Assembly: GCA_001443375.1 (NCBI GenBank)
Contig: LDXM01000012.1
Location: forward strand, 2,089-66,088
From: Chloroflexi bacterium CSP1-4
Lineage (GTDB): Bacteria; Chloroflexota; Limnocylindria; Limnocylindrales; CSP1-4
Length of the DNA: 64,000 bases
Reading direction: 5' to 3'
Positions 4,372 to 18,571 of the stretch are shown piece by piece (positions within the stretch are counted from its first letter, which is position 1; every line of letters starts with the position of its first letter). The notes beneath the pieces are model-generated. The model saw nothing but the letters and a program-made list of their open reading frames with translations, was not told the origin of the DNA and ran no database searches. Both the position numbers and the translations under genes were made by a program.

Positions 4372-5349
4372 TCACGACGATCCCGCCGAGGTGAGCGCGA
4401 TCCTGGTGGCCAGCCGGCGCGCCTCGTCCGGATCGAGCTCACCTGCCCCGGGCACGAGCGCGTTGGCGGCCGCCGCACCGGCGCCCGCGAAGAAGGCGGG
4501 GCCGAGGCCGAGGCCCGCGGCGAGACCGGCGGCCATGCCGGCCAGGAAGGCGTCGCCCGATCCGACCGGATAGCGACCCCGCACCGGGGGCGGACCGAGC
4601 CGAAGCTCGAGCCCCGTCCCGACGAGGACGGAGCCGCTGCTGCCGGCGGTGACCACGGCGTTGCCGGCGCCCCGCTCCACGAGCGCCTGCGCCAGGTCGC
4701 GGATGCCAGCCCCGGGCCCACCGACTGAGTCGGCGCCGAGTGCCTCGGCCGCTTCGGTGGTGTTGACCTTGACCAGCCAGGGATGTTTGGCCAGGGCGGC
4801 CGCGAGGCCCGGCCCGTACGCGTCGACGAGCGTCCGGGCACCCCAAGCGTGAGCCGTGGCCACGACCCGCGCGAAGGCATCGTCGGGCGAGCCGGTGGGC
4901 AGGCCGCCGGAGATGGTGACGATCGTCCCGTCGCCGGTGGCGGCGGCATGGCTCGCGATCGTCTCATCCAGCAGCGCCAGCAGCGCATCCCAATCCCCCG
5001 CGCCCACGGCGGGGCTGGGCTCGTAGATCTCCGTCAGCTCGGCCGTCGCGCGATCAAGGATCGAGACACAGGTCCGGGTTTCGCCGTCGACCCAGGTGAA
5101 GCGGCCGCTCACGCCGATGCCGGTCAGCGCTTCTTGGACCCAACGGCCGGCGTGGCCGGCCAGGAAGCCGATGGCCGTCACCGGGGCGCCGAGCCGGTGC
5201 GCGGCCCGGGCCACGTTCAGTCCCTTGCCGCCGGGCAGCGTGGTCACGGCCACCGGCCGGTGGATCGCCCCGGCCCGCAGCGCCTCGACCTCCTCGAGGC
5301 GGTCGATGGCCGGCGCAGGGGCGACGCAGATCAGCCGGCCACCGCTCAC
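4372..5349 (-). CDS. hexose kinase of the 1-phosphofructokinase family (PfkB superfamily; LacC/FruK-like tagatose-6-P or fructose-1-P kinase)
   Basis: Translation from GTG 5349 is VSGGRLICVAPAPAIDRLEEVEALRAGAIHRPVAVTTLPGGKGLNVARAA...GSGDAFLAGMAAGL. The GTG overlaps the upstream stop as GTGA. The 5' part of track ORF 4372..5772 is an out-of-gene extension. Confidence 0.8.
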   Translation of the reverse strand: MSGGRLICVAPAPAIDRLEEVEALRAGAIHRPVAVTTLPGGKGLNVARAAHRLGAPVTAIGFLAGHAGRWVQEALTGIGVSGRFTWVDGETRTCVSILDRATAELTEIYEPSPAVGAGDWDALLALLDETIASHAAATGDGTIVTISGGLPTGSPDDAFARVVATAHAWGARTLVDAYGPGLAAALAKHPWLVKVNTTEAAEALGADSVGGPGAGIRDLAQALVERGAGNAVVTAGSSGSVLVGTGLELRLGPPPVRGRYPVGSGDAFLAGMAAGLAAGLGLGPAFFAGAGAAAANALVPGAGELDPDEARRLATRIALTSAGSS

Positions 5350-6308
5350 TCCGGCAGGTCTCGTCCGGCGGCGAGCAGGGCCGCGCGCGCCTCCTCGAGC
5401 GTGGGTTGCCCGTCGGTGCCGCCCGCGCGCCGCGTGGACAGGGCGCCACAGGCCACGGCCAGCTCGAGTGCATCCGCCAAGGGCCAGCCTTGCAGGTACC
5501 CGCACAGGAAGCCGGCGTCGAACGAGTCCCCGGCCCCCACCGCGTCGGCCACGGTCACCTGCAGCGCGGCGCTGGTGACTGAGGCGGAGCCGCGCACGGC
5601 GAGAGCGCCCCGGTCGGCCTGCTTGACCACGACGGTCATGCCCTCCGGCCCGACCCCTCGGATCGCCTGTGCCGCGGCCGCGACGTCGCTCGTGCCGCCG
5701 ATCGCCCGTGCCTCGGCCGTGTTGGGCAGGAAGACGTCCGTCAGCGCGAGGATGTCCTGCAGCCCCTGCCACTCCTCGGCGGGGTCCCAGCCCGGGTCGA
5801 GCGAGGTCGTGAGGCCCTCGGCGTGTGCTGCTGCGAAGAGCCCGGGCAGGCCGGGGCGCAGCCGGTCCTGGAGGAACCAGCTGCCGACGTGCAGGTGGCG
5901 CGCCCGCATGAGCAGGGCCCGGGGGACTTCCTCCGCGTGGAGCGACGCCATCGCTCCCGGGGCGGTCAGGATCGCCCGGTCGGCGCCGGTATCGAGGACC
6001 ACGGTCACACCGGTCGGCAGCTCCGGGTCGATGCGGCAGGCGCTCACGTCGATGCCGCGGGCGCGCATCTCGTCGAGCATGAAGCGCCCGAACAGGTCGT
6101 CCCCCACGACGCCCACGAAGGCGGTGCGCAGCCCCAGCCGCGTGGCGCCGCAGGCGGTGATGACCGACGAGCTGCCCACGGCCAGCCGGATGGCGCGCAC
6201 GTACCGCTCCGCCTGCCCGAAGCGTGGCTGCGCGTGGGCGCCGGCGACGATGATGTCCGGGTTGATCTCGCCCACCACGAGCAGCCCGAGGTCGACCGGC
6301 GGCCCCAC
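5346..6308 (-). CDS. PfkB-family carbohydrate kinase (ribokinase-like sugar kinase)
   Basis: The sequence contains GLLVVGEINPDIIV...DTGADRAILTAPGA...GAGDSFDAGFLCGYLQG, the ribokinase signature. The likely start is GTG 6308, 2 nt after the aldolase stop. An alternative ATG at 6377 would overlap the aldolase gene by 67 nt. Confidence 0.75.
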   Translation of the reverse strand: MGPPVDLGLLVVGEINPDIIVAGAHAQPRFGQAERYVRAIRLAVGSSSVITACGATRLGLRTAFVGVVGDDLFGRFMLDEMRARGIDVSACRIDPELPTGVTVVLDTGADRAILTAPGAMASLHAEEVPRALLMRARHLHVGSWFLQDRLRPGLPGLFAAAHAEGLTTSLDPGWDPAEEWQGLQDILALTDVFLPNTAEARAIGGTSDVAAAAQAIRGVGPEGMTVVVKQADRGALAVRGSASVTSAALQVTVADAVGAGDSFDAGFLCGYLQGWPLADALELAVACGALSTRRAGGTDGQPTLEEARAALLAAGRDLPE

Positions 6309-6310
6309 GC

Positions 6311-7279
6311 TCAGTACTCCCGGTACCAGCCGTCGCCCGGCGGCTTCATGGCGGCCAGCCGGCTGGCCGTCTCCCACGGTCGTCCCAGCGCGTCCACGCG
6401 GTCTGCGAGCGCGGCGAGGCGGCGGCGACCCTCGCCGGTGAGGAAGGCATCGCGCTCGGCCGGCGGCATCGTCGCGGCCTGGGCCCAGATGGCGCGTCCC
6501 GCGAGCACGCCGCTGGCGCCGGCGGCGCAGGCGACCTCGACCTGGTGCTCGAACGTCCGCTCGTCCACGCCGCCCGAGAGGAGCACCCAGGGCACGCTCG
6601 AGGCCGCGGTCAGCTCGTCACACGCCTCGCGCCAGCGCTCTTCGTCGGCCACGGCCGCGTCGTAGGGGAACTCGGCCTTGAGGATGTCGCCGCCGATGGC
6701 CGTCAGGCGCCGCGCCGTCTCGATCACGACGCGACGCCGCTCCTCGCCGGTCAGCTTCCCGCCGTCCGCGATCGAGTAGCCCAGCGGCTCCAGGAAGAGT
6801 GGCAGGTCGCTGGCGCGCGCCTCGTCGGCGACGTAGGCCACGAGCGCCTCCTGGGCGGGCGCGTTGACGGCCTGGGGGTGGTAGTAGACGAGCAGCTTGA
6901 CCGCCGACGCGCCCAGCCGCGCCGCCTGCTCCACGCTCCAGCCCTCCAGGAGGCGGCTCTGGCGCGCGGTGGACGGGCCGTCGTAGCCGGTCGCCTCGAC
7001 CGCCACGATGAGGCCCGCCGACGCAGGCAGCGACCCGTCGGCGATGCACTGCGCCGCGCCGATCTCGGGATCGAGCAGGACGCCGGTGGCGGCACCGGCG
7101 AGCGCCCGCACCACGGCGCGCTTGAACTCGACCATCTCCTCGAAGGTCACCGAGGCCGGATCCGCGAGCCGCAGCTCGCGGCGCAGGTTCTGGCGATGAT
7201 CCAGCGCGAGCACGGTGAACGTGCCCCGCGGGGAGGCGCACTGGCGGAGGCCGCGCAGCGTGCCGGGGCGGAACGTCAT
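6311..7279 (-). CDS. class I tagatose-1,6-bisphosphate aldolase-like protein (LacD/DhnA family)
   Basis: 322-aa protein with TFTVLALDHRQNLRREL...KLLVYYHPQA...LLSGGVDERTFEHQVEVACAAGASGVLAGRAIW. It is similar to LacD-type aldolases and is the first gene of the aldolase-kinase-kinase operon. Confidence 0.7.
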   Translation of the reverse strand: MTFRPGTLRGLRQCASPRGTFTVLALDHRQNLRRELRLADPASVTFEEMVEFKRAVVRALAGAATGVLLDPEIGAAQCIADGSLPASAGLIVAVEATGYDGPSTARQSRLLEGWSVEQAARLGASAVKLLVYYHPQAVNAPAQEALVAYVADEARASDLPLFLEPLGYSIADGGKLTGEERRRVVIETARRLTAIGGDILKAEFPYDAAVADEERWREACDELTAASSVPWVLLSGGVDERTFEHQVEVACAAGASGVLAGRAIWAQAATMPPAERDAFLTGEGRRRLAALADRVDALGRPWETASRLAAMKPPGDGWYREY

Positions 7280-7304
7280 GGCGGGATGGTATCATCCGCG
7301 GAGG

Positions 7305-7323
7305 TACGGACGTCCGTATGTCT
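7305..7323. promoter_or_regulatory. perfect 14-bp palindrome TACGGACGTCCGTA plus 5 nt, in the divergent promoter region between the aldolase operon and the GH4 gene; a candidate operator
   Basis: The palindrome was read directly in the sequence. The 15-mer GACGTCCGTATGTCT at 7309..7323 recurs as its reverse complement at 8648..8662. Confidence 0.55.
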
Positions 7324-7333
7324 GGAGGCGCTG

Positions 7334-8629
7334 ATGACCCGGATCGTGCTGATCGGCGCGGGCAGCGTCGAGTTCACGCGCAACCTCCTGGGCGACTTCC
7401 TCTCCTACCCGGAACTGCACGACGCGACGTTCGCCCTCCACGACATCGATGCCGACCGGCTCGCCACGGCCGAGCGCATGGCGCACTGGACCGCCGGCGC
7501 CCTGGGGGCGACCCCGCGCATCGAGGTCCATCTCGACCGCCGCGATGCCCTGCGCGGCGCCGACTTCGTCGTGGACACGATCCAGGTCGGCGGTGCCCGG
7601 GCGACGCAGATCGACTTCGGCGTGCCGGCGCGCCACGGCCTGCGCTACACGATCAACGACACCATCAACATCGGCGGCGTGATGCGCGGCCTGCGCACCA
7701 TCCCGGTCGTGCTCGACATCGTGCGCGACATGGAGGAGCTCTGCCCCGACGCCTGGTTCCTCAACTACACCAACCCCATGTCGATGCTCATCTGGGCCGT
7801 GGCCGAGCGGAGCGACATCCGCACGGTGGGGCTGTGCCACTCCGTCTACTGGACGGTGGACACGATCGGTCGCTACCTGGGCATCCCGCGCGAGGAGATC
7901 GAGCACGTCTCGGCGGGCGTCAACCACCTCGCCTTCCTGCTGCGACTGGAGCATCGCGGCCGCGACCTGTATCCGGACCTGCGCCGCTTCGTGGCCGACG
8001 ACCGGATCCCCCCGGACGACCTGGTGCGCGCGGAGCTGTTCCGGCGCCTGGGCTACTACCCCACCGAGTCCTCCGAGCACCACGCCGAGTACAACCCCTG
8101 GTTCATCCCCAAGGGGGACGCCGTGGAGCGCTTCAACATCCCCATCGGGGAGTACCTCTCGCGCGTGGCCGCGAACCTCGATGAGTACGCGGAGACGAAG
8201 CGCCGGCTCGACGCCGGCGAGCCGTTCGAGATCGAGCGCAGCGGCGAGTACGCCGCGGTCTTCGTCCATGCCCTCCTGACCGGCCAGACGGAACGGATCG
8301 TGGGCAACGTCATGAACCGCGGTTTCGTGGCCAACCTGGATCCGGACGCCTGCGTCGAGGTGCCCTGTCTCGTGGACGGCGGCGGGATCCATCCCCAGAC
8401 CGTGGGCCCCCTGCCGCCCCAGTGCGCCGCGTACATCCGGCCGGCCATCGACGCCCAGCGCCTGACCATCCGTGCGGCGCTCGACGAGGACCGCGACGCC
8501 GTCTACCACGCGGCCATGCAGGACCCGCAGATCCAGGCCCGCCTCTCCCTCGAGGAGACGTGGCGCCTGGTCGACGAGCTGATCGCGGCCGAAGGGGAGT
8601 GGCTGCCGGCGTGGCTCCGCCCCGGTTGA
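7334..8629 (+). CDS. glycoside hydrolase family 4 (NAD+/Mn2+-dependent alpha-glucosidase or alpha-galactosidase-like)
   Basis: The N-terminus MTRIVLIGAGSVEFTRNLLGDF is a Rossmann motif. CHSVYW, GVNHLAFLL and NPWFIPKGD are GH4 hallmarks. A GGAGG RBS lies 6 nt upstream of the ATG at 7334. The long track ORF 6545..8629 carries a 5' antisense extension. Confidence 0.85.
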   Translation: MTRIVLIGAGSVEFTRNLLGDFLSYPELHDATFALHDIDADRLATAERMAHWTAGALGATPRIEVHLDRRDALRGADFVVDTIQVGGARATQIDFGVPARHGLRYTINDTINIGGVMRGLRTIPVVLDIVRDMEELCPDAWFLNYTNPMSMLIWAVAERSDIRTVGLCHSVYWTVDTIGRYLGIPREEIEHVSAGVNHLAFLLRLEHRGRDLYPDLRRFVADDRIPPDDLVRAELFRRLGYYPTESSEHHAEYNPWFIPKGDAVERFNIPIGEYLSRVAANLDEYAETKRRLDAGEPFEIERSGEYAAVFVHALLTGQTERIVGNVMNRGFVANLDPDACVEVPCLVDGGGIHPQTVGPLPPQCAAYIRPAIDAQRLTIRAALDEDRDAVYHAAMQDPQIQARLSLEETWRLVDELIAAEGEWLPAWLRPG

Positions 8630-8647
8630 CAGGCAGGGCTAGGCTGG

Positions 8648-8662
8648 AGACATACGGACGTC
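8648..8662. promoter_or_regulatory. second copy of the 15-mer operator-like motif, between GH4 and the ABC transporter substrate-binding gene
   Basis: AGACATACGGACGTC is the reverse complement of 7309..7323. It shares the core TACGGACGTC. Confidence 0.5.
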
Positions 8663-8708
8663 TGGACAACCTCGGTCACTCACTGACCGGGGCCATGGAG
8701 GAGATGCG

Positions 8709-9992
8709 ATGACCCGGTCCACTGCACGCCTCGGAGCGCTCCGGCGGGTCGCCGGTATCGCGGCGCTCCCGGTGATCCTCGCCTTCGTCGCCGCAGGCTG
8801 CGGCCAGGCCGCGACGACCATCGAGTACTCGATCTGGGGCGACCCGGCCGAGCTGGCCAGCCAGCAGGCGATCGTGGACGCCTTCCACGAGGCCAACCCG
8901 TCGATCACGGTCAAGGTGACCGTCTCGGACTGGGACACCTACTGGGACAAGCTCCAGACGGGCCTGGCCGGCGGCGCAGCGCCGGACGTCTTCGCCATGG
9001 ACGGCCCGCTCTTCCCGGACTTCCAGTCCCGCGGCGTGCTGCTCGACCTGAAGTCGTACGTCGAGAAGGACAAGTACGACCTGACGCAGCTCGCCGACCA
9101 GGGCGTGAAGGACTTCACGACCGCCGACGGCGGCCAGTACGGCCTGCCCCGCGACCTGAACGTGATCGTCCTCTACTACAACAAGGCGATGTTCGACGAG
9201 GCGGGCGTGGCCTACCCGGACGACACCTGGGACTGGGCCAAGCTCGTCGAGGCCGCCCACAAGCTGACCCTCGACAAGGACGGCGACGGCACGACCGACC
9301 AGTGGGGCCTCTACACCGAGACCACGGACATGGAGAACTACTGGTCGTCGCTGGTCTGGCAGAACGGCGGCGACATCATCGCCCCCGACGGCAAGTCGAC
9401 GCTCCTCGGCAGCGAGGAGGCGGTCGGGGGCCTGCAGTTCCTGCAGGACCTGATCTGGAAGGAGAAGGTCGTTCCCGAGCCGGCCCTCTTCGCCGAGACG
9501 GGCGACGCCTTCGAGCAGGGCCAGGCGGCCATGGAGGCCAACGGCTCCTGGCTGGTCCCGACGCTCGAGGCCGCCGGCATCGAGCTGGGCATCGCGCCGC
9601 TGCCGCAGGGTCCGGCCGGCCGGGCGACCTCGGTCAATCCGACCGGCGCCGTCGTCTACAAGGACAGCAAGAACCCCGACGCGGCCTGGCTCTTCGTCAA
9701 GTACCTCGCCAGCCCCGCGGCGCAGGAGAAGCTCATGGCGCTGAAGGCGTCGCTGCCGGTCTCCAAGGAAGTGCTCGCCGGGCCGTACGCGGCATCGTTC
9801 GACGGCGCGCAGGTGTTCGCCGATTCGCTCGCCTATGCGCACCTCAAGCCATCGTTCCTGGGCTACAACGAGTTCACGGCGATCCTCCAGGAGGAGCTTG
9901 ATACCAACGTCTTCAACGAACCGAAGAAGACCGCGCGCGATGCCATCGACACGGTCCTGGCCGAGCTGAACGCCCTCCTGGCGGGTCAGTGA
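8709..9992 (+). CDS. ABC sugar transporter substrate-binding lipoprotein (family 1 extracellular solute-binding protein)
   Basis: The signal peptide has a lipobox (LAFVAAGCGQA). The protein is 427 aa. The motif YSIWGDPAE...WDTYWDKL is typical of carbohydrate-binding SBPs. Confidence 0.85.
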   Translation: MTRSTARLGALRRVAGIAALPVILAFVAAGCGQAATTIEYSIWGDPAELASQQAIVDAFHEANPSITVKVTVSDWDTYWDKLQTGLAGGAAPDVFAMDGPLFPDFQSRGVLLDLKSYVEKDKYDLTQLADQGVKDFTTADGGQYGLPRDLNVIVLYYNKAMFDEAGVAYPDDTWDWAKLVEAAHKLTLDKDGDGTTDQWGLYTETTDMENYWSSLVWQNGGDIIAPDGKSTLLGSEEAVGGLQFLQDLIWKEKVVPEPALFAETGDAFEQGQAAMEANGSWLVPTLEAAGIELGIAPLPQGPAGRATSVNPTGAVVYKDSKNPDAAWLFVKYLASPAAQEKLMALKASLPVSKEVLAGPYAASFDGAQVFADSLAYAHLKPSFLGYNEFTAILQEELDTNVFNEPKKTARDAIDTVLAELNALLAGQ

Positions 9993-10900
9993 CCGTCGGC
10001 CCCGCGAGGGCCCGGCGGCGCACCGGGCCGCTCGCATCGGAGGCCCGCTGGGCCTGGTTCTTCCTGGCCCCGACGATCCTCGGCCTGGTCCTGCTCTCGG
10101 CGGGACCGATCCTGGCCACGCTGGCCATCAGCCTCACGAGCTGGGACCTGCTCCAGGCCCCCCGGCTCGTGGGGCTACAGAACTTCGTCGACCTGCTGGG
10201 CGACGACCGCTTCCTGCACGCGCTGCGCAACACGGTCTTCTACACGGTGACCTCCGTGCCGCTCGGCCTGGCGCTCGCGCTCGGGCTCGCCCTGGCGCTC
10301 AACCGGACGATCCGGGGCATCGCCTGGATCCGCACGGCCTACTTCCTGCCCGTGGTCACCTCGACCGTGGCCATCTCCCTGGTGTGGGCCTGGATCTACA
10401 GCCCCGAGCAGGGCATCCTCAACCAGGTCCTCGGCCTCTTCGGCGTGCCCGCGCAGAGGTGGATCTCGGACCCGTTCTGGGCGATGCCGGCGATCGTGGT
10501 CATGGCCGTCTGGCAGGGCCTCGGGACGAACGTGATCATCTTCCTGGCCGGCCTGCAAGCGATCCCGGAGGAGTACTACGACGCCGCGCAGGTGGACGGC
10601 GCCGGCCGCTGGGGCCGCTTCCGCCACGTCACGCTGCCGATGCTCACCCCGAGCATCTTCTTCACCGGCATCCTGAGCCTGATCGGCAGCTTCCAGGTCT
10701 TCGATCAGGTCTACGTCCTGGCGCGTCCCGGCAGGCCCACCGAGGCCACGACCACGGTGGTCTACTTCATCTACGAGAACGGCTTCCGCAACTTCAAGAT
10801 GGGCTACGCGAGCGCGGCCTCGTGGGTCCTGTTCATGATCGTGGCGCTGCTCACCGCCCTCTACTTCCGCTCCCAATCGCGCTGGGTCCACTACGGCTGA
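9989..10900 (+). CDS. carbohydrate ABC transporter permease (MalF/UgpA-like)
   Basis: 303-aa protein with 6 TM segments and the EAA-like motif region IFLAGLQAIPEEYYDAAQVDGAGRWGRFRHVTLP. It overlaps the SBP gene by 4 nt. Confidence 0.85.
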   Translation: MTVGPARARRRTGPLASEARWAWFFLAPTILGLVLLSAGPILATLAISLTSWDLLQAPRLVGLQNFVDLLGDDRFLHALRNTVFYTVTSVPLGLALALGLALALNRTIRGIAWIRTAYFLPVVTSTVAISLVWAWIYSPEQGILNQVLGLFGVPAQRWISDPFWAMPAIVVMAVWQGLGTNVIIFLAGLQAIPEEYYDAAQVDGAGRWGRFRHVTLPMLTPSIFFTGILSLIGSFQVFDQVYVLARPGRPTEATTTVVYFIYENGFRNFKMGYASAASWVLFMIVALLTALYFRSQSRWVHYG

Positions 10901-10904
10901 GGCG

Positions 10905-11813
10905 ATGGACCAGGCATCCGCCCTAGCCACCCTCGCGCCCCGGCGCCGGCCCCGGCGGCGGCCCTGGGCCCGGATCGGCCGGCGCACGATCGTCTACGCG
11001 CTGCTCATCGCGGGCGGGCTGCTGATGATGGGGCCATTCCTGTGGATGATGGCCACCTCGCTCAAGACGCGCGCCGAGGTCTTCGGCTCGCCGCCGCTCT
11101 CGCTGCCGTCGGGCGCGCACTGGGAGAACTACGCGCGGATGTGGGATGCGCTCCCCTTCTCGACCTTCTTCTTCAACTCGGTGAAGCTGGCCCTGCTCAA
11201 TACGGCCGGCCAGCTCGTCAGCAGCTCGATGGCGGCGTTCGCCTTCGCCACCCTCCAGTTCCGCTTCAAGGGACCGCTCTTCGGGATCCTGCTGGCGACG
11301 CTGATCATCCCCTTCCAAGTCGTGCTGGTGCCGAACTTCATCCTCTACCGCATCCTGCCGCACCCGCTCTCGAGCAGTGGCAACTGGATCAACACGCATG
11401 AGCCGCTGTGGGTCGGGGCGTGGCTGGGCGGCGCCTTCGGCACGTTCCTGCTGCGCCAGTTCTTCCTTACCATCCCGAGGGAGCTGGCCGACGCCGCCCG
11501 GGTGGACGGCGCCAACCCCTTGCGGATCTTCTGGCACGTCTACCTCCCGCTGGCCCGGCCCGCCCTGGCGACGCTCGCGATCTTCACCTTCATGTGGACA
11601 TGGAACGACCTCATCGACCCGCTCATCTACCTGCGCGACACGGAGCTCCAGACGGTGACCGTGGGGCTCTCGCTGTTCAAGGGACAGTTCGTCGGGAAGT
11701 GGCCGGAGATGATGGCCGGGGCGCTGGTCAGCCTGCTGCCGATGATCGTGCTGTTCGTGATCGCACAGAAGCACTTCGTGCGCGGCATCACGCTGAGCGG
11801 CCTGAAGGGCTGA
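10905..11813 (+). CDS. carbohydrate ABC transporter permease (MalG/UgpE-like)
   Basis: 302-aa protein with TM segments and RELADAARVDGANPLRIFWHVYLPLARPAL, an EAA-type permease motif. Confidence 0.85.
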   Translation: MDQASALATLAPRRRPRRRPWARIGRRTIVYALLIAGGLLMMGPFLWMMATSLKTRAEVFGSPPLSLPSGAHWENYARMWDALPFSTFFFNSVKLALLNTAGQLVSSSMAAFAFATLQFRFKGPLFGILLATLIIPFQVVLVPNFILYRILPHPLSSSGNWINTHEPLWVGAWLGGAFGTFLLRQFFLTIPRELADAARVDGANPLRIFWHVYLPLARPALATLAIFTFMWTWNDLIDPLIYLRDTELQTVTVGLSLFKGQFVGKWPEMMAGALVSLLPMIVLFVIAQKHFVRGITLSGLKG

Positions 11814-11820
11814 GGTCAAG

Positions 11821-12549
11821 ATGATCGTCGACGGGGTCCCGCTCTACCGCCAGATCAAGGCCGACCTGCTCGAGCAGATCAAGAGCGGCCAGCTGGCGCC
11901 CGGGGAGCGCATCGAGTCGGAGCTCGAGCTGATGGCGCGCTACGGCGTGAGCCGGGCCACCGTGCGGCAGGCGCTCGGCCAGCTCGTGGCCGAGGGCTAC
12001 CTGGAGATCCGCCGCGGGCTCGGGACGTACGTCGCCACACCCAAGCTGGAGCAGGGGCTGGGCGGCTTCTACTCCTTCAGCCGCGAGATCGAGCGGCTGG
12101 GCATGCGACCGGGCACGCGCGTGCTCGGGGTCCGCCTGGAGCCGGCTACCCGGACGGTGGCGGCGGCCCTGGGGCTGCCCCTGGAGACGCCGGTCGTGGC
12201 GCTGCGACGCCTGCGCCTCGCCGACGACGAGCCGCTGGTGGCCGAGACGAGCTACCTGCCGGCGGCGCGCTTCCCCGGCCTCGCCGAGCGGGACTTCTCC
12301 CGTCGCCGTCTCTACGACACGCTGTTGGCCGACTACGGCGTTCGCCCCGCGCGTGCCCACGAGGTGTTCGAGCCGGTCCTGCTCACGACCGAGGAGGCGT
12401 CGCTGCTGGGCAAGCACCGCGGCGACCCGGCGCTGGTGGTCGAGCGCACGGCCTTCGACACCACGATGCAGCCGATCGAGTTCTGCCGCAGCGTCGTGCG
12501 CAGCGACCGCGTGCGTTACTTCGTCGACCTGGGCGAGGCGCAGGCATGA
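11821..12549 (+). CDS. GntR-family transcriptional regulator of the HutC/UTRA subfamily
   Basis: 242-aa protein. The N-terminal wHTH is LYRQIKADLLEQIKSGQLAPGERIESELELMARYGVSRATVRQALGQLVAEGYL. A UTRA effector-binding domain follows. Confidence 0.85.
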   Translation: MIVDGVPLYRQIKADLLEQIKSGQLAPGERIESELELMARYGVSRATVRQALGQLVAEGYLEIRRGLGTYVATPKLEQGLGGFYSFSREIERLGMRPGTRVLGVRLEPATRTVAAALGLPLETPVVALRRLRLADDEPLVAETSYLPAARFPGLAERDFSRRRLYDTLLADYGVRPARAHEVFEPVLLTTEEASLLGKHRGDPALVVERTAFDTTMQPIEFCRSVVRSDRVRYFVDLGEAQA

Positions 12550-13559
12550 TCGCAGACGCTCGAGCCAGCGTCACCTGGCGCGAGGCGGCGACGAGCGGGG
12601 AGGCGGTGGCGGCAGCCCTGGAGGCAAGCGCGGCCGCGCCCGGGCGGATCGTCGAGTCGCTCCTCTCGGCGGACCTCGTCGTGTTCAGCGGCGCCGGATC
12701 CTCCTACCACCTCGCCCAGGTGGTGGCCTGGACCTACCGCGCGGAGACCGGGCGGCCGGCGATCGCCGTGCCGCTCTCGGAGATCCTGCTGCGGCCGGCG
12801 GGGGTCTTCGGGGCCGGCCCGGAGCGTGCCGTGGCCGTCGTCATCTCGCGCTCGGGCGAGACCTCCGAGGCGGTCGCGGTGGCCGCTCAGCGACGGGCGG
12901 CCGGCGCCGTCACCATCGCCGTCACCTGCCGCGCGGAGAGCCCGCTCGCGTCCCTGGCCACCGAGCGCCTGGTCTCGCCGCTCGGTGACGAGCGTGCGAT
13001 CGTCATGACACGCTCGTTCACGAGCATGCTGGCGCTGCTGCTGGGCATCGTCGGGCGGGGCGCGGTGGGATCGGCGCTCGGCGCAGACCTGGCTCGCCTG
13101 CCGGATCGCTTCGACGCCCTCACTGGCCCGGAGGTCGAGCGGGCGTGGGCTCGGTCGGCCGAGATGTCCTGGTCGCGCATCGTCGTCCTGGGCGGCGGCG
13201 CCACCTTCGGCCTGGCGCACGAGGCCTGCCTGAAGGTGACCGAGACGAGCCAGCTGCCGGCTTCGGCGTATGAACCGCTCGAGTTCCGCCACGGTCCCAT
13301 CTCGGTGTGCGAACCCGGTGTCCTCGTGCTCGGCCTGCCCGGCGGACCGGGCGCTGCCGAGGAGCGCAGGGTCCTCGACGAGTGCGCCGACCTGGGCGCC
13401 TCGACGTGGTGGCTGGACCCGGCCCCGGACCTCTACCATGCCGCCCGACTGCCCCTGCTCCTGCCGCCCATCCAGGCGCTCGCGCTCGGCCTCGCCGCGG
13501 CCCGCGGCCGCGATCCCGACGCGCCCCGCCACCTCTCGCAGGTGGTCGTGCTGGAGTGA
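12546..13559 (+). CDS. SIS-domain sugar-phosphate isomerase/deaminase-like protein (AgaS/GlmS-C-like, double SIS)
   Basis: 337-aa protein. VVFSGAGSSYHLAQV and ISRSGETSEAVAVA are SIS motifs. A second SIS-like half contains VVLGGGATFGLAHEACLKVTETS. The start overlaps the gntR stop as ATGA. Confidence 0.8.
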   Translation: MIADARASVTWREAATSGEAVAAALEASAAAPGRIVESLLSADLVVFSGAGSSYHLAQVVAWTYRAETGRPAIAVPLSEILLRPAGVFGAGPERAVAVVISRSGETSEAVAVAAQRRAAGAVTIAVTCRAESPLASLATERLVSPLGDERAIVMTRSFTSMLALLLGIVGRGAVGSALGADLARLPDRFDALTGPEVERAWARSAEMSWSRIVVLGGGATFGLAHEACLKVTETSQLPASAYEPLEFRHGPISVCEPGVLVLGLPGGPGAAEERRVLDECADLGASTWWLDPAPDLYHAARLPLLLPPIQALALGLAAARGRDPDAPRHLSQVVVLE

Positions 13560-14626
13560 CCGCCGACGAGCTGCGCCTGGCCGACTTCCGGCCGCGCTCG
13601 CGGCTGCGGGTGGCCGCGCACGGGGTGCCCCGGCCGGCCGTACCGGCGATCGATGCCCACAACCACCTCGGTGCGGCGTTCGGCGGCGCCTGGGCCTCCC
13701 GCCCGCCGGACGAGCTGCTGCCGATCCTCGATGAAGCCGGCGTCGAAGCCATCGTCGACCTCGACGGGGGATGGGGCGAGGCGCTCGTGGCGGAGATCGA
13801 GCGCTGGCAGCGGCCGCATCCCGATCGCATCGCCGTCTTCGCCGGCCTCGACTACGAACGCTGGGCCGAGGACGAACGCTTCGGCGAGACCGAGGCCCGA
13901 CGACTCGAGGCGGCGGCCCTGGCGGGGGCTCGGGGCCTGAAGGTCTGGAAGGTGCTCGGGCTTCGGGCGCGCGACACGGTGGGTCGTCTCGTGGCCGTGG
14001 ACGACGCGCGGTTGGACCCGCTGTGGGCTGCGGCTGCTCGGCTGGCGCTGCCGGTCGTCATCCACGTCGCGGACCCGGTCGCCTTCTTCGAGTCCCTGGA
14101 CCCGACCAATGAGCGCTGGGAGGAGCTCCACGCCCACCCCGACTGGCACTTCTGGCCCACGCGGCCGCCGGGACGCCCCGATCTGCCCGGCTTCCCGCCC
14201 TTCGACGAACTGCTGGAGGGGTTGCGCCGGGTACTGCTGCGCCACCCGGTGACGACGTTCATCGGCGCGCACGTGGGTTGCGCCGCCGAGGACCTGGCCT
14301 GGGTGGGGGCGACGCTCGAGGCGTGCCCGAACTTCCACGTGGACATCGCGGCCCGCCTGGGCGAGCTGGGGCGGCAGCCGTACACCGCGCGGGCGTTCTT
14401 CGAGCGCTACGCCGACCGCGTCCTCTTCGGTGTGGACGTCGAGCCGGACCCGGAGGTCTACCGCCGCTACTACCGCTTCCTCGAGACCCGCGACGAGTCC
14501 TTCGATTACGACGCCGACGAGGTGCCCGGGCAGGGCCGCTGGCAGATCCACGGCATCGGGCTGCCCGAGGACGTGCTGCGCCGCGTCTACCGCGACAACG
14601 CCCGGCGGCTCATCTTCGAGCGGTAG
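13556..14626 (+). CDS. amidohydrolase-family (TIM-barrel metal-dependent hydrolase, amidohydrolase-2-like) protein
   Basis: The GTG at 13556 overlaps the SIS stop as GTGA. Translation VTADELRLADFRPRSRL...PAIDAHNHLG contains an HxH metal motif. The downstream sequence HVADPVAF...FIGAHVG is also family-typical. The track ORF starts earlier at 13307 with an Arg/Pro-rich, non-native extension. Confidence 0.75.
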   Translation: MTADELRLADFRPRSRLRVAAHGVPRPAVPAIDAHNHLGAAFGGAWASRPPDELLPILDEAGVEAIVDLDGGWGEALVAEIERWQRPHPDRIAVFAGLDYERWAEDERFGETEARRLEAAALAGARGLKVWKVLGLRARDTVGRLVAVDDARLDPLWAAAARLALPVVIHVADPVAFFESLDPTNERWEELHAHPDWHFWPTRPPGRPDLPGFPPFDELLEGLRRVLLRHPVTTFIGAHVGCAAEDLAWVGATLEACPNFHVDIAARLGELGRQPYTARAFFERYADRVLFGVDVEPDPEVYRRYYRFLETRDESFDYDADEVPGQGRWQIHGIGLPEDVLRRVYRDNARRLIFER

Positions 14627-15026
14627 CGGGCCGCCGCGCGCGGGGGATGACCAGGCGCAGCGCGGTGTGCGTCGGCGAGAACGCGACCACCTTGTTGTCG
14701 ACGAGTCCGGCGGCCTTCGCCGCGCCGATCACGTCCACATCCCGGATGGTCGCCGCCTTGCCCTTGCGCGAGACGACCCAGATGGCGCCGTTCGGCTTCA
14801 GCGCCCGCTCCAGTTCGCCGAGCGAGGCCAGCTCGGCGAGCGAGTCGGCGGCGAGGAAGATGAGGTCCGTCCCAGGCAGCGGCGCCCCATCGGTGATGTC
14901 CTGCGTGTGGGCCTCCAGCGCCGCCCGGAAGTCGGGGTCCGCGACGCCCATCACGGCCACGCGAGCACCCGGGAAGACGCCGAGCTTGTCGATGACCGGC
15001 TTGTCGTAGACGCGCTCCGGGCTCAC
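14610..15026 (-). CDS. DUF3052-domain protein
   Basis: Translation from the GTG at 15026 is [39 protein letters not shown]...IWVVSRKGKAATIRDVDVIGAAKAAGLVDNKVVAFSPTHTALRLV. The GTG overlaps the upstream cyclase stop as GTGA. The remainder of track ORF 14610..15758 is antisense junk. Confidence 0.6.
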   Translation of the reverse strand: MSPERVYDKPVIDKLGVFPGARVAVMGVADPDFRAALEAHTQDITDGAPLPGTDLIFLAADSLAELASLGELERALKPNGAIWVVSRKGKAATIRDVDVIGAAKAAGLVDNKVVAFSPTHTALRLVIPRARRPATARR

Positions 15027-18000
15027 GCGGACGGGACGCGGCTCGCGCTCGGGGCTGCGGCCGCGCGCGAGGTCGCTGACGCCCGCGGGCCACGTTCGAT
15101 GGCGCCCTCGAGGAGGGCCAGCATGGTCGGCGATCCCAGTTCCGCGATGAGCGCGCGGGCCTGGTCGGCCGCCACGCGCCCATACGGCTCGTCCACGCCG
15201 AGGAGCCCGACGGCAGCCGTGAGCATGAGCGCCCGGTCCACCCGGAAGCCCAGCTGGTCGAGGACCTCGATGGCCGACCGGAAGCCCGCCGCCCCGGCCG
15301 CCACGCGGCCCTCGAAGACGTCGATGGCGGCATCGAAGGCCGTCGTACTCACGTCGGCCACCCGGCCGCGAACGCCGACGGATCGCCAGCCCTCGCGAAC
15401 GACTCGCACGGCGGCCTCGTCGCCGGCCAGGAGCGCGTGGGTGCCGGCGACGATGTGTCCGGACATGGCCCAGGTCCCGCTCATCGTGGGCAGCGCCGCC
15501 ATGACGGTCCGGTAACCTGCGTCTGGGTCGCCGGACAGCGTCCGAAGAAGGCCCGCGTTGAAGGCGTGATAGAAGTGCGACTGCGGATCGCCTTCGGCGG
15601 GGAGCTGAGCCTCGATCTCGTTGCGCTGCCGGAAGGCGCCCTCGAGGTCGCCCTGATAGGCGGCGATGGCCATGCGCGTCTCGGCGAAACCCAAGCGATA
15701 TCCGAGCGGCACCTCGTCGCCGGCGAACACGTCGGCCTGCGCCAGGCACCACGCCCAATCGCCCAGGTCGTGGGTGGCGGTCCCCAGACTCACGGCCACG
15801 AGTTGGCGTTCCCAGTCGCGGAGCCCGACGCGGCGCGCCGTGACGAGCCCCTGGCGGGCCCCTTCCAAAGAGTCGGCGGGATCGTCGAGGTCGAGGAACA
15901 GGAGGTTGTTGCGGGCGCGCAGCTCGGCCTCGATCAGGCCGTGCGCCTCCGCGAAGCGGACGGCGCCGCGCATCAGCGCCAGCGCCTCCTGGAGGCGGCC
16001 CACGTCGGCCATCGCGCCGGCCTTCGTGTTGAGTGTCTCGGCGATGACCGGCGCCAGGCCGAGGCGCTCGGCCGCGATGAGCGCCTTCTCCGCCCAGGGC
16101 AGCACGTTTTCGGGCGGCTCCGCGCTCCGCCAGTGAGCGCGCGCGAGCTCCGAGGCCAGGCCGGCGAAGACGGCGTCATCGACCCCCTCGCCGGCCTCGA
16201 TCCGCGCCGCCGCTGCCTCGAGCGTCGCGAGACCCGCGGAAACCTCGCCCTCATGCAGGAGGATGGCGCCGAGACGCGTCGCGGCACGCACAGCGTCGGC
16301 GGTCAGTCCGGCTCCGCCATACCATGCGATGGCTTCACCCAGCGCGCTTTTGGCGGCCTCGAAGTGGCCTCCGAAATAGGCGGCATCGGCCAGCCGTTCC
16401 GTGACCGCCGCCTGCTCCGCCGCGTCGGTCGTGACGGTCAGCGTCTGGCGGTACAGCGCCGCCGCCTGGTCATGCGAGTGGAGCGCCAGGGCGCGCTCGG
16501 CGGCGGCACGGAGCGTGACCCGTGCCTGGGCGGCAACGGCCTCGCCCTCCGGACCGGCCGGGCTGGCCTCGTAGGCGGCGACGTAGTGGCTGGCCAGGAT
16601 GCCCGCCAGTTCGTCGTCGTCGAGGATCTCGTAGAAGCGTGCTGCGGCCAGGTGGCGGGCACGTCGCTCGCGACGACCGAGGGTCCCGTAGGCGACCTCC
16701 CGGATGACCGACTGGACGAAGCCGTACTGGCCGCGCTCGGGCGATCGGGGGTCGACATCGAGCTCGAGGATGTCGCGCCGGATGAGGCCGTGCAGCCGGC
16801 TCTCGAGCGCCGCTTCGGCCTCTCCGGAGATGCCCGACAAGCCGGCCAGCGTGAAGGTCTTGCCCAGGATCGAGGCGTCCTGGAGCAGGCCGCGGTCGGC
16901 CGCGGGGAGCGCATCGAGGCGGGCCGCGATGAGCGCCTGCAGGTTGGCCGGGATCTCCAGGCGATCGAGGGAACCGGTAGCCCGGAAACCACCCTCGGTC
17001 GCCTCGAGGCGCCCGCTGTCGAGGAGCATGCGGAAGGTCTCCACCGCGTAGAGCGGGACGCCGTCGGCCTGCTCGACGATGCGCCGGACCACGCTGGCAT
17101 CCAGCCCCGCCGCCATCCCTTCGACCAGCTGGATCATGGTCCCGTCGGCCAGGGGCTCCAGGTGGATGGCGGTGAAGTGGTGCTGCCCCGCGCCCCACGT
17201 CGGGCGGCGGTCGATGAGTTCCGGTCGTGCCAGGCTGACGATGAAGATGGGACGCCCGCGCGACCATTCGAGGATCGACTCGATGAAGTCGAGCAGGCCG
17301 GCATCAGCCCAATGGAGGTCCTCGAAGACCATCATCACCGGACCGCGGTCGGCGACCCGCTCGAAGAACGTCCGCCAGGCGGCGAAGAGCTCCTCCCGCT
17401 GGCCCGGCGGCGCCTCCTCGAGGCCGAGCAGGGCCAGGATGCGCGGCGCGATCCAGTGCCGTTCGTCGTCGTCGGCCACGTACTCGGCAAGCGTCGCGGC
17501 CACCTTTGCCCGGGTGGTCGCCTCGTCGTCGCCCTCGGCCAGCCCGGCCCGCCGGCGAACCATCTCCCCGAGCGCCCAGAACGTCACGCCATCCCCATAG
17601 GACGGCGACCGGCCCTGGTGCCAGAAGACGTCCTGCGCCAGGCCGTCGAGGTACTTCTCCAGCTCCCAGGCCAGTCGGCTCTTGCCGATGCCCGCGATGC
17701 CCACCAGCGAGACCAGCCGCGCTCGTCGCTCCCGCGCCGTGGCGTGATAGAGATCCTTGAGGAGCTGCAACTCGTGGTCGCGACCGACGAAGGGCGGCTC
17801 GATGCCGGTCGTGCGACCCATGCCCTTGCGTCCGGCCACGACGCGCACCGCCCGCCAGGCCGCCACGGGCAGGGCCTTGCCCTTGACCGTCTGATCGCCG
17901 GCCGGCTCGAAGGTGATGGCGTCACTGGCAGCGAGGAGGGTCGCCTCGCCGACCAGGACCTCGCCCGCCGCGGCGGCCGACTGCAATCGTGACGCGGTGT

Positions 18001-18571
18001 TGACGAGGTCTCCGGCGACCATCCCTTCGCCCTGCGCCCCGACCGTGACCGCCGCTTCGCCGGTCAGGACGCCCACCCGCAGCTGCAGCCCGCCGACCGA
18101 GCCGACCTGGAGCGATGGGCCCGCCTCCACCAGGTCGAGGCCGGCCCGCACCGCCCGCTCGGCGTCGTCCTCGTTGGCGATGGGCGCGCCCCAGATGGCC
18201 ATCACGGCATCGCCGATGAATTTCTCGACCGTGCCGCCGTAGCGGCCGATGATTTCGCGCGCGACGTCGAAATAGCGCGAGAGGTACTCGCGAACGTCCT
18301 CTGGGTCGCGATCCTCGGAGGCGGCCGTGAACCCCACCAGGTCGGCGAAGAGGACGGACACCAGGCGGCGCTCCGCCTCCGGGGCCGTCGCGGCGACCCC
18401 CGGGGCGGGCGCCTCCCCCACCGACATCGGCGTTCCGCACTCGCCGCAGAAGCGATCGGCCGGCGGGTTCTCGTGGCCGCACTTCGGGCAAACGGCGGCA
18501 AGGCGCGTGCCGCACTGGCCGCAGAACTTGCGGCCCGGCTCGTTCTCGTGTCCGCAGGTCGTACAGCGCAT
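15023..18571 (-). CDS. multidomain signalling ATPase with an N-terminal double zinc-ribbon, a class III adenylate/guanylate cyclase domain, an AAA (AAA_16/STAND-like) NTPase and C-terminal TPR-like repeats
   Basis: 1182-aa protein. [46 protein letters not shown] is the DZR domain. [15 protein letters not shown]...[11 protein letters not shown] is the CYTH-independent class III cyclase core. [10 protein letters not shown] is the Walker A motif and [11 protein letters not shown] is the Walker B motif. Confidence 0.85.

Follow-up and report, generated by a model that had tools for sequence, protein, structure and literature searches.

Candidate operators of a HutC/GntR repressor in a sugar gene cluster of a Candidatus Limnocylindria bacterium

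The 64,000-bp stretch of Chloroflexi bacterium CSP1-4 analyzed here (contig LDXM01000012.1, positions 2,089 to 66,088; this whole stretch is called the window, and its own numbering is used) contains a cluster of sugar genes in which two short intergenic spacers share a palindromic sequence. The question raised by this locus is whether this sequence has a regulatory role and, if so, which protein reads it. The sequence is a 22-bp palindrome found once between a tagatose-bisphosphate aldolase gene and a divergent glycoside hydrolase family 4 (GH4) gene, and once more in a weaker form between the GH4 gene and a solute-binding-protein (SBP) gene. It is probable (roughly 0.8) that both copies are operators of the HutC/GntR repressor encoded in the same cluster. 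The assignment is based on the conservation, position and specificity of the sites and on the domains and conserved residues of the regulator, all of which were obtained here. The three elements are as follows.

7301..7322, no strand: site 1, the 22-bp palindrome GAGGTACGGACGTCCGTATGTC, candidate operator in the divergent aldolase/GH4 spacer
8649..8670, no strand: site 2, GACATACGGACGTCTGGACAAC, weaker candidate operator copy in the GH4/SBP spacer
11821..12549, plus strand: HutC-subfamily GntR regulator of 242 aa, assigned with Pfam, the proposed repressor

The original prediction started from shorter units. It described a perfect 14-bp palindrome, TACGGACGTCCGTA, inside the 54-bp gap between the aldolase start at 7279 (minus strand) and the GH4 start at 7334, and next to it a 15-mer, GACGTCCGTATGTCT, with a second, reverse-complemented copy at 8648-8662. 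These coordinates and sequences are correct: the palindrome is at 7305-7318, the 15-mer is at 7309-7323 (plus strand) and 8648-8662 (minus strand), and its two copies are the only exact ones in 64 kb. The second copy is inside the 79-bp gap between the GH4 stop at 8629 and the SBP start at 8709. The location of the sites was thus given properly, while their extent was not; the actual unit is the 22-bp palindrome at 7301-7322 and 8649-8670, and the shared 15-mer corresponds to one arm and the core of this palindrome plus one additional flanking base. The coincidence of the 14-mer and the 15-mer, which had been taken as strong evidence by itself, does not carry that weight, as neither count in the window is beyond chance. 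Perfect 14-bp palindromes number 13 in this 72% G+C window against a mean of 15.7 in composition-matched simulations, and there are 190 repeated 15-mers at approximately 106 pairs of places (simulated mean 62). Palindrome and repeat searches of the window that tolerated mismatches gave results not above those of shuffled sequences. With palindrome and 15-mer counts at background, the window-only statistics were dropped as evidence. What is beyond chance is that both copies are in the two short spacers flanking one gene, and that both score highly with a matrix from other genomes, as given below.

Further evidence came from relatives, which were retrieved with the regulator protein alone, one genome per species. 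The search gave one 98% identical metagenome-assembled genome of Candidatus Limnocylindria (Chloroflexota) and approximately 42 further Limnocylindria/Chloroflexota loci at 62-73% identity, as well as distant paralogs from Streptomyces and others. The motif recognized in these loci is a 22-bp even palindrome, GAC-R-T-M-CGGACGTCCG-K-A-Y-GTC, with an invariant CGGACGTCCG centre and the half-site GACRTMCGGAC. The exact 10-bp core CGGACGTCCG was found upstream of GH4 in 31 of the 32 regulator-retrieved loci in which the GH4 upstream region is present, and the remaining locus shows a single mismatch. At the 12 outer palindrome positions the mean pairwise identity is 0.79, against 0.34 in the distal flanks, which is near random for the composition. 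The motif thus co-occurs with the regulator across approximately 40 genomes in spite of diverged flanks. Half-sites of three types, GACGTACGGAC, GACATCCGGAC, and GACATACGGAC, are freely combined in the sites, and a fully perfect 22-bp palindrome, GACATACGGACGTCCGTATGTC, is seen in locus L033.

Site 1 departs from the consensus only at position 3 (G for C). Site 2 follows the consensus throughout its left arm and departs from it at 3 positions of its right arm. Against a matrix derived from other genomes only, site 1 scored 32.8 bits and site 2 scored 24.8 bits, whereas the next-best score in the window was 10.3 bits and the maximum across 20 simulated windows was 14.2 bits. That third-best match, at 2310 inside a major facilitator superfamily (MFS) gene, was treated as noise because it is below the simulated maximum.

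As a separate observation, a weaker palindrome (20-30 bits) follows the site-1 operator at a shift of exactly 8 bp in many loci, for example L038:5373-5402, L032:9616-9645, and L039:1594-1623. With the shifted copies, GACGTC-like hexamers recur every 8 bp, three to four in all, an arrangement that might accommodate two repressor dimers in overlapping registers.

The position of the palindrome relative to the predicted promoter is also conserved. Among 82 distinct GH4-upstream regions, 80 have a TAnnnT hexamer whose end is 0-5 nt from the start of the palindrome; at four control offsets with shifted anchors, the hexamer was seen in 0-1 of the 82. A TT(G/C)nnn hexamer is present 16-19 nt farther upstream in 73 of those 80, and the distance from the palindrome end to the GH4 start codon has a median of 33 nt. 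Because it begins within 5 nt of a −10-like hexamer, the palindrome spans the predicted transcription start, which is the classic position for a repressor site. In the window, the elements around site 1 are as follows.

7290..7295, plus strand: TATCAT, −10-like hexamer in the GH4 direction, 5 nt upstream of site 1
7286..7291, minus strand: TACCAT, candidate −10 of a leaderless aldolase transcript, read from the sequence, 6 nt upstream of the aldolase ATG

The two hexamers overlap back to back (window 7277-7295), and the aldolase ATG in the window has no Shine-Dalgarno sequence. A Shine-Dalgarno sequence is present in divergent loci with longer spacers, and a similarly compressed spacer of 60 bp is found in L090 and L173. 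The aldolase message of the window is therefore probably leaderless, as far as can be read from this arrangement, and its −35 region would be inside site 1. One site could then control both directions.

Site 2 is less widespread. A site of this type was found in 9 of 64 distinct SBP-upstream regions (the window, L001, L002, L090, L103, L117, L119, L130, and L070), and a TAnnnT or similar hexamer is just upstream in all nine. The right-arm C-to-T change of the window is common to L001, L002, and L090. In most relatives the SBP gene starts within approximately 20 nt of the GH4 stop; there is no true GH4/SBP spacer and so no room for site 2. Site 2 is accordingly read as a putative lineage-specific second promoter-operator module, weaker than site 1. 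Two hexamers accompany it in the window.

8640..8645, plus strand: TAGGCT, −10-like hexamer 3 nt upstream of site 2, in the same TAnnnT-plus-palindrome layout as site 1 elsewhere
8626..8631, plus strand: TTGACA, overlapping the GH4 stop codon, conserved in site-2-type spacers

Perfect or near-perfect TTGACA is also seen in the site-2-type spacers of L001, L002, L090, L103, and L117. It was considered as the −35 element of site 2, for which it sits too near by the standard of a sigma-70 promoter: its gap to TAnnnT is 7-10 nt (8 nt in the window), and its distance to the palindrome varies from 15 to 21 nt. A hidden element in the apparent 200-270-bp GH4/SBP spacer of L003-L043 was also considered, and rejected. 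This spacer is an alignment artefact; the apparent gap is the unaligned N-terminus of the SBP, a lipoprotein-type signal with conserved A-A-C-G-G.

The link between the motif and the regulator gene is clearest in rearranged loci. The promoter-palindrome module is directly upstream of gntR in L034 (79 bp), L030 (171 bp), and L032, and directly upstream of the regulator gene in the metagenome contig L073. Additional palindrome copies precede other sugar transporters in L030 and L034. The specificity of the motif was examined at a cut-off of 12 bits in 1.07 Mb of loci and window together, of which approximately 0.8 Mb are the orthologous loci. All matches of at least 12 bits in the 1.07 Mb belong to this cluster or are upstream of a further transporter or glycoside hydrolase family 114 (GH114) gene. 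No site of at least 12 bits was found in the loci of paralogous HutC regulators (L044-L058). Each 20-kb locus has one to three copies, all at promoters of the same pathway, and the 64-kb window has two. The behaviour of a dispersed repeat, such as repetitive extragenic palindromic (REP) sequences or miniature inverted-repeat transposable elements (MITEs), was not seen in the loci scanned or in the window.

Metagenome contigs were scanned for GACNTNCGGACGTCCGNANGTC, which gave at least 120 stretches with at least 122 sites. The specified positions of these sites match by construction, and thus the sites were used for context and not for conservation. Among the matches listed, the four free positions are R, M, K, and Y in 79 sites, 69 of which have a homolog of a cluster gene, or a secreted GH114 gene, no more than 400 bp away. 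The other ten are mostly within 70 nt of a contig end; one off-cluster consensus site precedes a weak xylose-isomerase-like open reading frame (ORF) with a triosephosphate isomerase (TIM) barrel. Also among the matches listed, 30 sites have other bases at the free positions, 29 of them unrelated to the cluster, and 13 sites are pure (GGACGTCC)n runs in mostly unrelated contexts. The pure form GACGTCCGGACGTCCGGACGTC, that is, (GGACGTCC)n, is found upstream of NUDIX and GreA genes (L061, L087, L122, L144, L153, L161, and others), so this form is not diagnostic on its own. The motif was not seen inside coding sequence in the loci and metagenome matches scanned. Frequent copies inside genes, which the original prediction had named as the outcome that would speak against it, were likewise absent from the 1.07 Mb of loci and window and from the metagenome scan. 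The proposal that the motif is the operator of the local HutC/GntR repressor thereby gains support from conservation, promoter position, regulator adjacency, and specificity.

One further near-consensus palindrome, GACGTCCGGACGTCCGAATGTC at L157:1598-1619, is approximately 100-140 bp upstream of a HutC-type regulator 30% identical to that of the window. It may represent a distant relative with the same motif, or chance.

The ORF at 11821-12549, which had been called a HutC/GntR repressor, does have the two expected domains. Its N-terminus is a GntR winged helix-turn-helix domain (PF00392, E 1.2e-19, residues 8-71) and its C-terminus is a UTRA domain with the chorismate-lyase fold (PF07702, E 3.3e-43, residues 93-232). 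Among solved structures, the best match is NagR/YvoA (E 2e-43, 38% identity, residues 6-233) and the second best is DasR (E 6e-37); the alignment with both is end to end. Residues R45, G66, R130, R132, and Y165 of the regulator, the equivalents of NagR Arg48, Gly69, Arg133, Arg135, and Tyr167, are invariant in 40 orthologs, and the equivalent of NagR Thr90 is always Ser. In NagR, Arg38 and Arg48 read two guanines, Gly69 anchors the wing, and the effector phosphate is bound by Thr90, Arg133, Arg135, and residues 165-167 (PMC4333415). The residue pattern is consistent with a HutC repressor that has another operator and whose likely effector is a phosphorylated sugar. No covariation of residue 35 or the recognition helix with operator variants was found; the helix, like the core, does not vary, and no pattern was seen at residue 35.

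Characterized HutC systems resemble this one in architecture and differ in their motifs. NagR (YvoA) of Bacillus subtilis (PDB 2wv0, 4wwc; PMC4333415) is, like the regulator of the window, a HutC-subfamily protein with a winged helix-turn-helix plus UTRA. It controls an amino-sugar catabolic operon including its own gene, binding palindrome-like sites over promoters and being released by glucosamine-6-phosphate and N-acetylglucosamine-6-phosphate (PMC4333415). In contrast to the NagR sites, termed dre, the operator proposed here is unrelated in sequence and longer (22 bp with the invariant CGGACGTCCG centre), and the target genes and the presumed sugar are different. DasR of Streptomyces coelicolor (PDB 4zs8; PMC4918961) is a HutC repressor of the uptake of amino sugars and chitin-derived sugars, including ATP-binding cassette (ABC) importers, in a high-G+C host. 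DasR is a global regulator with many sites and a different motif, whereas one to three sites per neighbourhood were seen here, all at one pathway. AgaR1/AgaR2 in Streptococcus suis and Lactobacillales (PMC4694137) and AgaR in S. pneumoniae (PMC5018945) also belong to the HutC subfamily and repress the breakdown of galactosamine and N-acetylgalactosamine. Their targets are AgaS-type deaminase/isomerase, tagatose-6-phosphate kinase, and tagatose-bisphosphate aldolase, and their sites are even palindromes of 18-20 bp, predicted by a comparative approach like the one used here and confirmed with electrophoretic mobility shift assays (PMC4694137, PMC5018945). These Firmicutes systems have an AT-rich motif centre and uptake by a phosphotransferase system; here uptake is by an ABC importer, and the sugar is suggested by the gene content. 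AgaR of Escherichia coli is a DeoR-family protein, unlike the HutC regulators; it represses the aga cluster (agaZ, agaS), binds palindromes before its targets and autoregulates (summarized in PMC4694137).

Sites of the HutC subfamily are even palindromes that have been searched for at 14-24 bp (PMC4694137), and the 22-bp even palindrome is within this range. It is also located at promoters of genes colocalized with the regulator and is conserved over diverged flanks. Rigali and co-workers reportedly described in 2002 a typical, not defining, HutC core, GT-N-TA-N-AC. Both window sites were read, and GTnTAnAC is in neither of them. HutC regulators have diverse motifs, so the missing GTnTAnAC does not exclude membership in the HutC subfamily.

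These results can be combined into a mechanism. A repressor dimer would bind the 22-bp even palindrome, and at site 1, over the GH4 transcription start, the bound repressor would block RNA polymerase. Site 1 is approximately 20 nt from the divergent, probably leaderless, aldolase-kinase-kinase unit, and therefore this one site could switch off transcription both ways. Site 2 has a −10-like element of its own; it precedes the transporter, regulator, SIS and amidohydrolase genes and would act as a second repressible entry point. The regulator would be autoregulated, since its gene is part of the operon that it is proposed to control. The repressor would be released when a phosphorylated sugar produced in the pathway binds the UTRA domain; the regulator probably responds to such a sugar phosphate, and the effector is most likely an amino-sugar phosphate, for example galactosamine-6-phosphate. 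What we infer here is the binding itself, its repressing effect, the identity of the effector, and the leaderless promoter of the aldolase gene.

Several observations weigh against assigning the sites to the HutC repressor. Site 1 of the window has no recognizable −35-like hexamer, a simple scan of 7100-8900 for canonical promoters and terminators gave nothing, and the spacing of TTGACA and TAnnnT at site 2 makes no canonical sigma-70 promoter. With the canonical scan empty, the promoter inference is based on cross-genome conservation. The motif is also unlike the dre sites of the closest characterized relatives. In a dre half-site, two adjacent guanines are recognized by Arg38 and Arg48, and the wing contacts a G (PMC4333415); no match to it was found in the motif, and the equivalent of Arg38 is Leu, Val, Pro, Gln or Ile, never Arg. 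Given the half-site GACRTMCGGAC and this substitution, the palindrome was not filed as a dre site. The specificity scan covered 20-kb neighbourhoods and metagenome fragments. Finally, in L082 the palindromes adjoin a DeoR-type regulator gene, and no HutC gene is present on this 9-kb fragment.

The last point leads to the alternative that the palindrome is an operator read by another factor, either a DeoR-type protein, for which E. coli AgaR is a model, or a regulator encoded elsewhere, and that the HutC protein has a different target. In L082 (64% G+C), two near-consensus palindromes at 1615-1636 and 4903-4924 flank aldolase-pfkB-pfkB. One is upstream of a gene for a beta-lactamase-fold protein, and the other is immediately upstream of the DeoR-family gene, which is followed by an SBP_bac_5 ABC transporter. 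A different protein may therefore read the motif. L082 is, however, a short fragment from a more distant organism, and its HutC gene may be off the contig. The conserved 10-gene cluster has no regulator gene other than the HutC gene, in four independently rearranged loci the site is directly before that gene, and an even palindrome of such length is the form expected for HutC proteins (PMC4694137). Recognition by another factor is thus considered unlikely.

It is far less probable that the palindrome acts as RNA, as a hairpin in the 5′ untranslated region through which the GH4 and transporter messages would be controlled at the level of translation, stability or termination. Lying downstream of the predicted transcription start and ahead of the start codon, the site would be mostly transcribed, and a perfect inverted repeat is able to fold. 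What is conserved, however, is the sequence and not the pairing: positions 6/17 are non-complementary in 24 of 39 sites, positions 4/19 form an A-C mismatch in 17 of 39, and with an invariant centre there is no loop. In divergent spacers a single site serves the two strands. A search of Rfam had no match at E up to 1, and no terminator-like feature was found in 7100-8900. Least probable of all is a match by chance or a dispersed repeat (REP, MITE or simple (GGACGTCC)n) with no regulatory role. Palindromes and shared 15-mers of such size are indeed common in the window, and pure (GGACGTCC)n runs precede NUDIX and GreA genes, among others, in metagenome contigs unrelated to the cluster. Against this, the position is kept across approximately 40 genomes with randomized flanks, a 20-kb locus has one or two copies, always at the same promoters, and the scores are far above those of simulated windows. 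Binding of both window sites by the HutC repressor is the explanation preferred here.

The genes that would be under the control of the HutC repressor are as follows.

7334..8629, plus strand: GH4 glycoside hydrolase, first gene after site 1, with both GH4 domains (N- and C-terminal) matched in Pfam
8709..11813, plus strand: ABC importer downstream of site 2, comprising the SBP (8709-9992) and two permeases (9989-10900 and 10905-11813)
12546..13559, plus strand: double-SIS gene like aminosugar-phosphate deaminases/isomerases, from domain matches
approximately 13556..14626, plus strand: Amidohydro_2 gene with a probable GTG start at 13556
6311..7279, minus strand: class I tagatose-1,6-bisphosphate aldolase, first gene of the divergent unit 4372..7279
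5346..6308, minus strand: PfkB sugar kinase of the divergent unit
4372..5349, minus strand: hexose-phosphate kinase of the divergent unit, similar to 1-phosphofructokinase (1-PFK)/LacC

The GH4 gene belongs to the NCBIfam PRK15076 alpha-galactosidase subfamily (570 bits). At most gene junctions in the cluster the start and stop codons overlap or nearly so, and the SIS and Amidohydro_2 genes are translationally coupled to the regulator gene. The ten-gene cluster and its gene order are conserved among relatives. The aldolase-kinase-kinase block is the 3′ end of a single operon in most of them and is otherwise, as in the window, inverted upstream.

The members of the predicted regulon indicate its probable function. 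The palindrome also precedes a GH114 gene in L026 and in the metagenome contigs L069, L071, L126, and L139, and the GH114 product of L026 has a signal-peptide-like N-terminus. In L026 the palindrome is at 15754-15775 with TAnnnT upstream, and the GH114 gene sits after the last kinase gene. No GH114 gene was found in the 64-kb window. Enzymes of family GH114 are endo-alpha-1,4-galactosaminidases, with galactosaminogalactan- and Pel-type polymers as substrates (PMC12054363). The combination of GH114 with an AgaS-like SIS enzyme, a tagatose-6-phosphate-type kinase, and tagatose-bisphosphate aldolase suggests that the regulon is for uptake and catabolism of galactosamine oligosaccharides. The GH4 protein would be the intracellular exo-glycosidase of the pathway, possibly with a new GH4 specificity.

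A wider reading, which is offered only tentatively, is that the operator marks a regulon, so far undescribed, with which Candidatus Limnocylindria scavenges polymers of alpha-1,4-linked galactosamine, combining the pathway with a galactosamine-6-phosphate-sensing HutC repressor. Fungal galactosaminogalactan or bacterial Pel-type exopolysaccharide would be candidate polymers. The secreted GH114 endo-galactosaminidase would cut the polymer, the ABC system would import the oligomers, and GH4 would act as an exo-alpha-galactosaminidase, an activity that to our knowledge has not been described for GH4. The PfkB kinase, the AgaS-like SIS enzyme, the tagatose-6-phosphate kinase, and the class I aldolase would complete the pathway, with the HutC repressor sensing galactosamine-6-phosphate.

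A literature search found no described GH4/GH114 galactosamine operon or Limnocylindria HutC regulon, and no characterized transcription factor for this uncultured Chloroflexota class. As gene control, a local repressor on a palindrome over a promoter is of an ordinary, textbook kind. The analysis yields a predicted regulator-operator pair for an abundant uncultured class, together with a motif matrix, the layout of the promoter, and the genes of the regulon. The set of genes is the more useful by-product; it joins GH4, AgaS-like, and tagatose-phosphate enzymes with a secreted GH114, and it points to a testable use of cationic galactosamine exopolysaccharides in soil and freshwater.

Two other features of the window were noted. 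Directly downstream of the sugar cluster, and convergent with it, is a gene for a protein of 1182 aa (15023-18571, minus strand) with double zinc-ribbon, adenylate/guanylate cyclase, and AAA_16 domains. An imperfect tandem repeat is present at 471-582 (period 21 × 4, alternatively period 51 × 1.9), inside a minus-strand ORF of 185 aa (435-992) that has no Pfam match.

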